From Eledone cirrhosa (taxonomy: Eukaryota), in assembly GCA_964016885.1 (NCBI GenBank), contig OZ024745.1:44206001-44270000 (forward strand): 64,000 nt of DNA, given 5' to 3'. Below, in pieces: positions 2,911-46,934 of the stretch (position 1 is the stretch's first letter; each line of letters starts with the position of its first letter). Under the pieces are notes generated by a model. The model was not told where the DNA came from and made no database searches. It saw only the letters and a program-made list of their open reading frames with translations. The translations under genes and the position numbers were made by a program.

Positions 2911-3877
2911 AAAATGATTTGAAAATTATAAGCAGTCTTTTATTATGATAGAAATATGGTTACGGAACGGTTAATACAGTGTGTATTAAAAGGTTAATTA
3001 CAAATGATTATGCAATAATGAAATGACAAATATTTTTTCTCCTAAATATTCAATTCCACGTCTCACCGTGTTCAATATTGTCCATCTCAACCATCAAAAT
3101 CCAAAGTCTTGAAAAGCTGTAGGCGTTGAGAAAGGGATGTAAACCGTCTTTCTCCATCGTCCCTGCTCACCAGCCAACCTCCTGTTTTTCACCATCTTCA
3201 TGTTACTCTGACCCAGAGTTATTCTTATACCTTTTTCATTAGTTGTTTGTTCATGCAGAACTGCATTCACTTGAGGTATGTTATCATGGCGTCGTGTTAA
3301 AAGACGAAACCATTCCATTTCTAATAGTTTCACAAATGATAGAAGTGTTGCTCGGTTCGCAGTTTTCCCAATAAAAGACAGCTAAAATAACAGTTCCCAA
3401 TAAAGAACAGTTGAAATTACTATTACTATTTTTAAAAAGAAATATTAATCTTAGTCAAGTACTGAGTGGATATAATCGACACTCCCAACCCCATATTGCT
3501 AGCCTTGTGCTAAAATTAGAAGCAATTATTTACCAAAGTTGCTGTAGCTGCTACAATCCGACCTATAGCAATTCTTTCATGTAGATTCCAGTCGTCATTC
3601 AAACTGTGGACACCACACACGCGATCACCAAATATCAATTCAAGATCCGACTTGATTTCACCAATATACTGTTCTACAGCGTGTAACGACAGCTTACTGT
3701 ATGTGTGTGTCAGTACACACACACACACACATATATATAAGCAAAAGGGATATTCAATTTGTTGTTAATTCAACAAATATAAATGTTTATAACTGATTCA
3801 AAGCACTCGACAAGTTTTCTGGAGTATAATATTCAATGATATTAGATAAATGGAAACTATATTTATAAAACCATATT

Positions 3878-3938
3878 TATTCTATTATATATATTTCAAA
3901 GGTACCAAAACTTTGGTACGCTCTCATCAGATAAAATA
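3878..3938 (-). ncRNA. Minimal type I hammerhead ribozyme (family A, left arm)
   Basis: Minus strand: TATTTTAT-CTGATGA-GAGCGTACCAAAGTTTTGGTACCTTT-GAAA-TATATA-TA-ATAGAATA. Confidence 0.8.
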
Positions 3939-4057
3939 CAAAGTTTGTTTTATAAATATTGACATAACCAGTAAAAAATAACTTAACGGCTCAGGAAAAA
4001 CTTGAACCGTTAAGTTATTTTTTCCTGGTTATGTCAATATTTATAAAACAAACTTTG

Positions 4058-4118
4058 TATTTTATCTGATGAGTGCGTACCAAAGTTTTGGTACCTTTGA
4101 AATATATATAATAGAATA
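4058..4118 (+). ncRNA. Minimal type I hammerhead ribozyme (family A, right arm)
   Basis: Stem I TATTTTAT/ATAGAATA, CTGATGA at 4066-4072, stem II GTACCAAA/TTTGGTAC, GAAA at 4099-4102, palindromic stem III and an AUA site. Confidence 0.8.
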
Positions 4119-4375
4119 AATATGGTTTTATAAATATAGTTTCCATTTATTTAATATCATTGTATATATATATATATATATATATATATATATATATACA
4201 TATACATGTTAATATAAATTAATATATTTAATAAACACAAATACCAACATATTCATGTTTGTATTGTAAATGACCAAGTTAGCTAGATTGAAATATACTA
4301 ATAATAATATTACAGTATGCCTGCCTTGATTTAAGATAATAAATCAACAAAAACAAATCGTATTGGCAATGGCCG

Positions 4376-4508
4376 TGGTGCTTGGACAAATTTAAATTTC
4401 AAAATCAAACCTGTTCCGTAGACAGGTTTAAACCTTAAAATCCAAATATGTTTCGAATCATGAAAAAGTGGAAGAAATACCGCATTTTGATCTCCTCAGC
4501 AAGCACTA
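4376..4508 (-). ncRNA. Type I hammerhead ribozyme with long stem III (family B)
   Basis: Reverse complement of 5454-5586. A second minus-strand copy at about 4926-5043 has a deletion in stem III. Confidence 0.8.
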
Positions 4509-43300: not shown

Positions 43301-43495
43301 GGTGGCGGTGGTAGTAGTAGTAGTAGTAGTAGTAGTAGTAGTAGTAGTAGTAGTAGTAGTAGTAGTAGTAGTAGTTGTTGTTGTATAAGTAGTTGTAGTA
43401 GTAAGTAGTAGTTGTTGTTGCTGTAGTAGTAGTAGTAGTAGTAGTAGTAGTAGTAGTAGTAGTAGTAGTAGTAGTAGTTGTTGGTGTTGTTGTGA
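40378..43495. repeat. (GGT/TGT/AGT)n trinucleotide low-complexity tract with internal block duplications
   Basis: Seen directly; TTGTTACTATTACTAGTGTTGTAG marks three blocks near 40383, 40942 and 41316. Confidence 0.95.
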
Positions 43496-45520
43496 ACTCA
43501 GGAAAGCGGGCGGAGTGATATGCAGTATTTTGCCGTAAGTTTAAACTTGCAATCTATATAAAGGAAAATATCTCCACTAAATATAATTGGTTCAACGTGT
43601 GTGTATGTACATATATGTGTGTGTGTGTATGTGTCCCCGTGTGCGTGTGTGTGTGTATAAGATATGTCGATGTAATTGTGCAAAGTCTGTGAAAGCGTGT
43701 GTGTGTATATATATATATATATATATATATATGTGTGTGTGTGTGTGGGTGTGTGTGTGTATGCGTGCATGTATATTTTGTTTGTATTTAACACAGACAT
43801 ATATATATATATATATATATATATATATATAGTCCATAAATCTATACATATATATGTGTATGTGTATTCATTTACATATATACATACATGTATGTATGTA
43901 TGTATGTATGTATGTATGTATGTATGTATGTATGTATGTATGTATGGTATGTAAGTATGTATGTATGGTGGACATATATGATACGTGTGTAAAGATTAGC
44001 AAATACAAAACGTATCGATTAGAGAAAACGATGTTAGAGGCGAGAGAAAGAAAGGGTGAGATTTGGAGGGAGCGAGAATGAAAGAATGGGTGAGTTTCTA
44101 AGATATTTAGAGAGAGGGAGATATCTAGAGAGAGATATCTAGAGATATCTAGAGAGAGATATCTAGAGAGATATCTAGAGAGAGATATCTAGAGAGAGAG
44201 AGAGAGAGAGAGAGAGAGAGAGAGAGAGAGAGAATACAAAATAGATGCAAGAGAAAATAGACGTGTGAGAAAAGGCAAGAGAGATGGTTTGGGCAAGTAA
44301 GCTAGCTAAGCGATATGTAGGTGAACGGGCAAGTAGAATGGACGAAAGATTGAAAGAAAGTGAGATAGATTGTGTAATGGATGGCGAAGGGGTGAATGGC
44401 GATAGAGGTGGCTTGAGAGAAAATGTATTTAAAGCTTACGGACAACAATTTGCAGTTCCGGATTTGTGAAAATTGCCTGCTACGGAAAACGATGGCGTTA
44501 GAACGGCAACCGAGACGAAGAGGAAAAATCAAACTAAAGAATTTGAAGTCGAGTGGCATTAATAACCATGGCAACGTCTTTAAATGTGATAGGCAGTGTC
44601 TTTTTTTTTTTCTTTTATTTTAATTTCTTCCTTTGTTTTATGTAGTATGGGTGTTTTAAATATATATATATACACACTCATATATACTCACACATACATA
44701 CATACATACATACATACATACATACATACATACATACATACATACATACATACATACATACATACATATATATATATATATATATATATATAGATATATA
44801 GATATATTCAAAATAGGGAGCGCACAGGACAAAGACAATGGAAAGACAACGGAAAGATGGACAGTCCTATCTCCTCAGTCAACCTCTGGAAATCACTACA
44901 GTTCAGTACATTAAGGTCGATACTAATCATACCAATGAACATTGGGACATACAAAAAGAGGTAGTGTGTGTGTGTGTGTGTGTGTGTGTGTGTGTGTGTG
45001 TGTGTGTGTGTGTGTGTGTGTGTGTGTGTGTGTGTGTGTGTGTGTGTGCAAAAAGTGAACAGAAATAACAAAGCAAATGACACAGTACATTAAAGAAATA
45101 TATTAGTTTGACTCTTGATATGGAAGGAAAAGAGTTTTTATGTTTGGGATACTAGATCTTCATCAGATGATAGAATGAGAAATAAATGATGAAATAGAAA
45201 GATAGAGAGTGAGAAGAGTAAGGAAGCCTATGTGGGGATTGTATTTGCTGATAAGATTATGGACACCTGAGTTGCCTTCATAGAACCAGTCCTGTGAACA
45301 TACCTCTTACTTCTTTTGAAGCCCAAGATGCTGCTTGTGGGAAATCAGCTCAAGGTTCGATCTGTATCGATCTAGCCCGACTCTGTAATCCACGGCTCGT
45401 CAGACTCCTTATATATATATATATATATATATATATATATATATATATATATATATATATATATATATATATATAAATGAAGAATAACATGGTTGACAGT
45501 ACAAACAAGGATATTTATTT

Positions 45521-45631
45521 ACAGTCTTACAATTGTTTCCATGATAGAATTGTCTATAAATTGCTAAATACTGGAGACAGTATAACTCAATTTATAATAC
45601 ATCTAACTTCAATCATTTCATCAGAAACTAT
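45521..45631 (-). ncRNA. Type I hammerhead ribozyme (family G, left arm)
   Basis: Reverse complement of 45940-46050. Confidence 0.8.
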
Positions 45632-45939
45632 TAAGAACTATAAAATATATGCGTAACGTAAACTTAAAAATTCAAATTACTATATCAATAATAGTATTAA
45701 TGATAAATAAATAAAGGAAGGGGGACGGATGGAAATAAGAGAGAAAGAAAGAAAATGACGAAAGAAGGAACGAAGTTACGAAATCAAACTATATCTTCGT
45801 TCCTTCTTTCGTCATTTTCTTTCTTTCTCTCTTATTTCCATCTGCCCCCCTTCCTTTATTTATTTATCATTAATACTATTATTGATGTAGTAATTTCAAT
45901 TTTTAAGGTTACCGTTACGCATATATTTTATATTTCTTA

Positions 45940-46050
45940 ATAGTTTCTGATGAAATGATTGAAGTTAGATGTATTGTAAATTGAGTTATACTGTCTCCAG
46001 TATTTAGCAATTTATAGACAATTCTATCATGGAAACAATTGTAAGACTGT
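45940..46050 (+). ncRNA. Type I hammerhead with long stem II and minimal palindromic stem III (family G)
   Basis: ATAGTTT-CTGATGA(45947)-78-nt hairpin (ATGAT/ATCAT, TGTAAATTG/CAATTTATA, ATACTG-TCTC-CAGTAT)-GAAA(46032)-CAATTG-TA-AGACTGT. Confidence 0.85.
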
Positions 46051-46934
46051 AAATAAATATCCTTGTTTGTACTGTCAACCATGTTATTCTTAACTTTTTT
46101 TTATTACTATAAGATATATTTACATAGGAATACAAGCGAAGTCATAAAATCGTCACAAACATAAACCTCTTGTTGAGTCACACAGCACCGTACGCTTAAA
46201 CTGTCCATGATAAGTAGTTTTCACAGACTCGTATCGGATTACCTTTAACGATTTATTGTTATCATATATATATATATATATATATATATATATATATATA
46301 TATATATATGAAAATAGAGAAATTAATGTGAGCAAGAAGTCAACAGTATTTCATAATATATAAGTGACTATAACGTCAAAATGGAAAATAATTAACGTAA
46401 GATATGGGAAAATAATTCAAACTCAATTAAAAAAAAATCAAGTCAGAGATTTTATCCACAGATTTTGTGAAATCCAGGGGAAAAAACCAATAGAGTCTTA
46501 ACTCAGAATAAAATAAAGTTTAAATACTCATCCTTCAATTTGGAAAAATTACAAATGCTCTATATAGTCTTAAAAAGACTATTTCACGACACTTTTCAGT
46601 GGGATTAGTCATGGTTGGAGTCATTCCTCAGTAGAGCTCAACACGATAACCCAAAGTACCACTGCCAAAATATGCCAAAAAGGGTATTTAAAAGCAGGCT
46701 AGTTCACCTCGTGCGGAATTTTGAAAATAAACATACATGGAGAAACATGGCTGGTGACGTCAGAATGAGACGAATGTCTGTTTACAAGAAACAGCAGTCA
46801 TAAACATTACACACACACATAGTTGAACAATGGTTGATTTAAGAAGTATTGGTAAAATGTGTGCGTTTCAACGCAAATGACTATATTAATAATAGTTAAG
46901 AAAATCGAAGAAAGTACTCCTTAAGGCTCATGAG

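Follow-up and report, generated by a model that had tools for sequence, protein, structure and literature searches.

A 64,000-nucleotide stretch of the Eledone cirrhosa genome (GCA_964016885.1, contig OZ024745.1, positions 44,206,001 to 44,270,000; hereafter the window, with positions counted from its first letter) harbors many small repeats that carry hammerhead ribozyme motifs next to (TA)n tracts. An initial annotation grouped them into at least seven families (A to G) and proposed them as a candidate system of retrozymes, that is, small non-coding retroelements mobilized by the proteins of a Penelope-like element (PLE) lying in the same window. Are these families one such system, or the ends of coding PLEs? 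The seven do not form a single system but split into two kinds of repeats. Four of them (A, E, F and G) represent coding PLEs truncated to their 3′ ends, and the other three (B, C and D) consist of non-coding monomers, whose insertion into (TA)n is likely due to copying in trans by a Penelope-type reverse transcriptase (RT) and endonuclease, a sequence-based explanation that we hold as probable. The links to open reading frames (ORFs), the monomer structure, the fixed ends, the (TA)n flanks, the pairing of long with short ends and the arms longer than one unit are all read directly from the DNA. The proposed PLE-driven retrozyme system is thus retained for B, C and D, which are non-coding and bear PLE integration marks, and abandoned for A, E, F and G.

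The hammerheads of families A to G are real motifs, with self-cleavage predicted. All seven families harbor type I hammerhead-shaped motifs near the positions originally noted, with the core boxes and the UH site in type I order and three stems, and the estimate of about 15 copies agrees with the 16 counted here (A2, B3, C1, D2, E4, F2, G2). Five extra copies come from families absent from the initial annotation, named H (two), I (two) and J (one), together with a partial core, K. In the window, 8 motifs satisfy a strict type I descriptor, compared with a mean of 0.03 and a maximum of 1 in 100 block-wise dinucleotide shuffles; a relaxed one, tuned after the families had been seen, retrieves 14, compared with a mean of 0.25 and a maximum of 3 in 60 shuffles. 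The core is the least-changing part of the hammerhead among the compared homologues of all seven families. Covariation gives a mixed picture: both-side (compensatory) stem changes occur in sister families of C (stem I, 17/69), D (stem II, 3/37 at two pairs) and F (stem I, 7/18), and the sisters of B covary in stem I, but none were seen within the homologue sets of B, E and G. The stem II register of B followed a window variant in this alignment, and the apparent stem II breakage there is not meaningful. The suggested search with Rfam hammerhead models was negative: there is no match at gathering score, no hammerhead model on the A/B, C and D stretches at E ≤ 10, and no hammerhead among the best 150 of 417 matches of a whole-window E-value scan, where nearly all matches are microsatellite-driven microRNA models.

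Some copies depart from the canonical form. Family E has a non-standard CAGAAGA core instead of CTGANGA in all four window copies and in 29 of 36 distinct homologues. This CAGA core (U4A), fixed in family E (window 24310, 25737, 27614), occurs independently in sisters of B (L137, L191) and is a natural variant. One D copy has lost GAAA (core 19297), and in one F copy the 5′ strand of stem I is missing. Stem/loop III is palindromic in A, C, D, G and H; in B, E, F and J stem III is predicted to be stable, so that folding as a monomer is possible. The families show no obvious mutual similarity, as first noted, with a single 34-nt match between G and H in all pairwise comparisons. Inverted pairs are the layout of most window elements, whose ends adjoin (TA)n as first described, in a genome of 3.0 Gb that is rich in (TA)n.

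Families A, E, F and G are not retrozymes. Each family was searched in the genome and 30 loci were examined per family. The ORF of family E occurs in the window copies and at 18 of 30 loci, with the RT in L094, and that of family G, a GIY-YIG ORF, lies about 550 nt upstream in at least five of 30, with the RT in L238. An upstream untranslated region (UTR) is common to seven of 30 family A loci, the GIY-YIG ORF being reached in one of 30 and the RT lying further up (extension L237). For family F, a GIY-YIG piece was found about 1.8 kb upstream in one of 30 loci (via L236), and no RT was seen. All four families are thus connected to RT/GIY-YIG ORFs at other genomic loci, which makes them ordinary PLE ends that have been truncated. 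The motifs of the Hydra clade, a CxCx5C linker, CxxC before the endonuclease E and CxH after N, are present in the ORFs of A, E and G, and the family F piece, which covered the endonuclease only, has CxxC-E and N-CxH. In Atlas look-alike clusters, GIY-YIG is found on 23% of members and RVT_1 on 12-44%. A single-sequence fold of the E endonuclease (pLDDT 37) was not used. These four families are known biology, hammerheads and (TA)n targeting of the Hydra clade being already published. Dense hammerheads in such genomes are largely ordinary PLE ends, which matters for repeat annotation.

In the window, family A (3741-4162) is an inverted pair of 3′ ends (pseudo-long terminal repeats, pLTRs) of a coding Hydra-type PLE, with a 94-nt tail on the left arm and hammerhead cores at 3930(-) and 4066(+). 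Family E is represented by two insertions. The first (22468-24364) consists of an inverted pLTR with a tail, a 5′-truncated GIY-YIG ORF (22673-23197), a 3′ UTR and a pLTR, with cores at 22626(-) and 24310(+), both CAGAAGA. The second (25677-27770) consists of an inverted pLTR, a 5′-truncated ORF with CxCx5C linker and GIY-YIG (to 26568), a 3′ UTR and a last pLTR that bears a 94-nt tail, with cores at 25737(-) and 27614(+). The RT attributed to this window PLE is absent, the 5′-truncated copies retaining linker and GIY-YIG only. Family F (25386-25589) is an inverted pair of coding-PLE 3′ ends joined in hammerhead stem I, with a tail on the left arm and cores at 25518(-) and 25524(+). Family G (45480-46263) is an inverted pair of 3′ ends of a coding Hydra-type PLE, with a tail on the right arm, cores at 45624(-) and 45947(+) and a long stem II. 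The spans first given were about right, except that those of A, F and G omitted the tails (3741-3833, 25386-25461 and 46092-46263). Family H (28004-28417; cores CCGAGGA/CCGAAGA) is also an inverted pair of PLE 3′ ends, with an RT upstream at locus L241, and family I (35394-35626) is an inverted pair of hammerhead-bearing ends that has an upstream extension at other loci, where a link to an ORF was not confirmed.

Most of the best-hit A copies (L002-L030) begin within a few bases of one site (window 3992). In longer copies an octamer-like ATTTGCAT precedes this site by about 60 nt, and the common start may be an internal transcription start. Most best-hit F insertions (L151-L180) invert at or near an AGCT palindrome in hammerhead stem I (window 25518-25524). 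The partial core K (45310-45409, minus strand) and two small palindromic TA-flanked pieces (35632-35744 and 20627-20692) are probably remnants of further PLE-type insertions.

Families B, C and D have a different organization. They consist of monomers of 551, about 428 and 531 nt, respectively, low in GC (33-37%), arranged in head-to-tail and inverted arrays, with a longest stop-free stretch of 54-79 aa. The left arm of B (4205-5043, minus strand) contains 1.55 units and a short-site end, with cores at 4499 and 5035, and its right arm (5043-5843, plus strand) contains 1.46 units and a long-site end with an 87-nt tail, with a core at 5463 and a predicted cut after 5577. Family C (7911-8454, plus strand) contains 1.25 units and a short end, with a core at 8201, a predicted cut after 8231 and the octamer ATGCAAAT. 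The left arm of D (19050-19812, minus strand) contains 1.44 units with a long end, and its right arm (19808-20228, plus strand) 0.79 unit ending 16 nt before the short site, with a core at 20113 and a predicted cut after 20183. Copies of the three families are spread over many contigs at 92-99% identity. First-look candidates, which are not copy numbers, amount to 2627 for B, 735 for C, 2580 for D, 1568 for E and 2392 for J. Contigs of unknown kind from one sample, compared with D and B, gave only sister variants. Family J (46310-46810, minus strand; core 46631) has a canonical-looking hammerhead and partial tandem copies in seven of 20 loci (L244-L263), which indicates a monomer of about 625 nt; it is probably a fourth non-coding monomer family.

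It could be argued that all seven families are truncated coding-PLE ends, the B, C and D arrays being tandem pLTRs whose coding parents escaped sampling. This explanation holds for four of the seven, and it draws on the fact that the best 40 of 735-2627 candidates were scored per search, so that B, C or D could have a rare coding parent outside the scored set. It also has a parallel in Xenopus, where 24 of 57 retrozyme families match transposable elements, 21 of the 22 being PLEs, according to the available text of Li et al. (10.64898/2026.07.22.740005). We nevertheless regard it as unlikely. The B, C and D flanks are more of the same family, (TA)n or unshared DNA, and no shared unique coding or upstream extension was found for B (40 insertions), C (about 76) or D (41), whereas 30 loci sufficed for each of A, E, F and G. 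In addition, B, C and D have tails made of the beginning of their own monomer, unlike A and G, whose tails are other sequence, and the diverged sisters of B, C and D at 70-85% are partial-tandem monomers again. The question of whether the families ever join RT/GIY-YIG ORFs therefore has a divided answer, positive for A, E, F and G and negative for B, C and D in about 150 sampled insertions.

How B, C and D were inserted is best seen at their ends. Each family has two fixed 3′ ends, measured from the predicted cut: +180/+267 in B, +221/+277 in C and +61/+177 in D. Among the two-armed insertions with both ends fixed, a long end is paired with a short one in 23/23 for B, 21/23 for C and 21/22 for D, or 65/68 overall (duplicate loci, the long C array described below and insertions near locus edges are excluded, and the C counts include a few insertions split by TA-run length). 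Of the 218 fixed ends, 196 have a (TA)4 no more than 30 nt away, against 11% of random window positions. The coding families of the window share this layout, so that coding and non-coding families with the same footprint stand side by side as an internal control. The two fixed ends, their long/short pairing and the (TA)n flanks match the priming described in vitro for a Poseidon PLE, and are the basis for proposing that PLEs mobilize B, C and D in trans. As non-coding monomers with PLE integration marks, the three families fit non-LTR retrozymes, with expression, circles and cleavage predicted, and the retrozyme reading holds for these three of the seven families.

The arms also carry information on the template. 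In a first sample, 34/41 arms of B, 34/46 of C and 41/46 of D cross the cut site, and 9, 7 and 14, respectively, cross it at least twice. Variants shared per 100 sites are 0.84 between units of the same arm, 0.90 with the other arm and 0.27 between different insertions in B, the corresponding values being 0.73, 0.64 and 0.26 in C and 0.52, 0.39 and 0.05 in D. Sharing is thus 2.5-10 times higher within one insertion than between insertions, both in the same arm and across arms. This fits one source RNA or locus; a circle, a multimer and template jumps are all compatible with it.

A second alternative is that B, C and D are satellites from old pLTRs spread by DNA-level amplification, through unequal crossing-over or circular DNA. 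The available part of Li et al. 2026 (10.64898/2026.07.22.740005) proposes local amplification of a PLE terminus, and one family C array (G000:C3:72261500-72272400; L242, L243) contains about 26 head-to-tail units with 3-unit and 8-unit periodicity. The higher-order period, from 15 of the approximately 26 units, led us to reject this array as a single rolling-circle product; it is a satellite born from a retrozyme insertion. Yet dispersion over many contigs, two fixed ends, (TA)n flanks and 65/68 long-short pairs are not predicted by DNA-level spread, which is largely refuted for the dispersed copies, and this origin appears very unlikely.

Several observations weigh against trans-mobilization of B, C and D by Hydra-type PLEs. 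A long end is paired with another long end in three of the 68 two-armed insertions, and in 20 others one arm does not stop at a fixed site. Because a full monomer was required in the queries, arms longer than one unit are overrepresented in the sample. The 5′ ends lie near the cut in 6/66 for B (3.0 expected), 9/68 for D (3.2) and 6/111 for C (6.4), and were rejected as cut-site markers, being weak in B and D and absent in C. The 8-unit period of the long C array implies that long arrays also grow by local DNA amplification after insertion. No sequence similarity was found between B, C and D and the coding families tested (A, E-J), unlike the pLTR homology reported in Xenopus. Finally, the assignment to the Hydra clade is by motif and not by tree, and Pfam gave no informative family on six ORF pieces.

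Mobilization in trans by PLEs remains our preferred explanation for B, C and D, and would proceed as follows. Tandem copies would be transcribed and the hammerhead would excise unit-length RNA. The enzyme, probably a dimer, would nick both strands of a TA tract and start reverse transcription from two internal positions in the RNA. Running outwards-in, the two cDNAs would then be joined head-to-head; arms longer than one unit would result from a circular or multimeric template, or from template jumps that re-enter it. The likeliest drivers would be Hydra-clade enzymes; no partner family was identified.

The initial annotation had assigned this role to the PLE of the window, family E. As a TA-targeting Hydra-type PLE with 1568 first-look candidates, copies about 95% alike and an age similar to that of B, C and D, E is a plausible enzyme source, but its being the specific driver of all non-coding families is very improbable. 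E has no sequence in common with B, C and D, and A, F, G, H and further coding families of this PLE-rich genome are equally good candidates. Moreover, the elements joined head-to-head to C come from several other families, as seen in a manual reading of 23 C arms that abut neither C nor TA at their 5′ end. Eight of these junctions are head-to-head with another PLE-type family: three Hydra-type coding arms (L098, L107, L308), the end of one other coding family (L105), two unassigned repeat ends (L287, L323), one of them with a full hammerhead, and two copies of a tRNA-like repeat (L106, L117). One further junction is head-to-tail (L293, where the C copy follows a PLE at C's inner TA run), one is ambiguous and 13 are unassigned. 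The arms of L107 have a long end on the C side and an A-type short end on the coding side; in L098 both ends look short. Where a reference was available, the 1.3 kb beyond C did not contain the missing part of the partner. L120 and L317 were discarded as hybrids, turning out to be a tiny C arm and a TA junction, and L085, L339, L356 and L384, readable as deletions, were not counted. Since deletion between neighbors can give such joints, and three B/D joints were read so, the C hybrids are a lead only. One tentative possibility, which we consider rather doubtful, is that a Hydra-type PLE dimer can load two RNAs, its own message and a retrozyme, and write both into one DNA break. If so, the hybrids of C with coding PLEs would be direct fossils of trans-mobilization, and one retrozyme would be served by several PLE families. 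No report of hybrid-armed PLE insertions was found in the literature, subscription journals and supplements being outside the search.

Other repeats lie nearby or share parts of this layout. A tandem repeat of about 270 nt with a tRNA-like part (L060:1780-2480, L059, L213:1150-1460; ARAGORN calls in two of five loci) has two fixed ends, inverted arms and TA flanks, and no hammerhead was found in it; it is possibly a tRNA-derived SINE (short interspersed element) moved by PLEs. The broken ORFs at 12200-13982 (minus strand) are taken by us, from their motifs, to be an L1/Tx1-like non-LTR element, and the 413-aa open frame at 59462-60703 (plus strand) presumably codes for a transposase-like protein. 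Tandem arrays of 62, 60 and 109 bp are found at 30857-31471, 50084-51530 and 55491-57773, respectively.

The coding families compare closely with published PLEs. Hydra-clade PLEs have been described with a CxCx5C linker, CxxC/CxH motifs, hammerheads and (TA)n insertion (Craig et al. 2021, PMC8557442, in the sections available). A, E, G and partly F resemble them in the C-terminal GIY-YIG, the CxCx5C linker, CxxC and CxH around E and N, hammerheads, (TA)n insertion, an inverted 5′-truncated copy and a tail at one end, and A also has RWK/DKT-like motifs. They differ in the CAGAAGA core of E and in tails of about 55-170 nt, against 30-40 bp in those sections. The minimal hammerheads of PLEs occur, in the accessible part of Cervera and de la Pena 2014 (PMC4209133), as many dissimilar families per genome, few of them inside full PLEs; the palindromic stem/loop III of A, C, D, G and H and the many dissimilar families in one genome are similar, while the stable stem III of B, E, F and J is different.

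Metazoan non-LTR retrozymes were described in 2020 with PLEs proposed as mobilizers (Cervera and de la Pena, PMC7229834, accessible text), and the link has phylogenetic support in a preprint whose title states the claim (Li, Clavereau and Pollet 2026, 10.64898/2026.07.22.740005) and whose available text reports cleavage in one of nine elements and a sample without a mollusc. The PLE-retrozyme partnership is therefore already in print, and B, C and D add members and insertion-end detail. They resemble non-LTR retrozymes in being non-coding and low in GC, with one type I hammerhead per monomer and arrays from dimers to multimers. Their monomers of 428-551 nt exceed the approximately 220-390 nt of the examples seen in PMC7229834 and fall within the 51-972 nt given in 10.64898/2026.07.22.740005. 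The hammerheads found here differ from those of known retrozymes in having a long stem II and a stem III that is long or palindromic. B, C and D differ from Xenopus retrozymes in that no pLTR homology to a coding PLE was found. No description of fixed dual ends, TA targeting and inverted arms was found for retrozymes in the available text of either source. Likewise, no literature on cephalopod retrozymes was found, with subscription journals, Repbase/Dfam and supplements outside the search. The consulted part of PMC13282606 lists Penelope families and unclassified SINEs and does not mention ribozymes; the window families may already be in a repeat library under other names.

The closest mechanistic parallel is the Poseidon element PAc of Anolis. 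In vitro, its RT starts at two internal sites whose spacing equals the tail, both DNA strands are cut and extended, the target is AT-rich, a dimer is predicted and hammerhead cleavage is dispensable (Frangieh et al. 2024, PMC11167929, in the portion available). The footprints described here are alike in their two fixed ends as putative start sites, a tail equal to the spacing, the proposed use of both strands by a probable dimer and an AT-rich target. The PAc results concern a coding element copying its own RNA, whereas B, C and D would be non-coding RNA used in trans. The insertion ends of B, C and D give sequence-level support to the proposal, so far unproven, that Penelope-like enzymes carry the retrozymes of animals, and the exact start sites and RNAs named here are open to the existing in vitro PLE assay.

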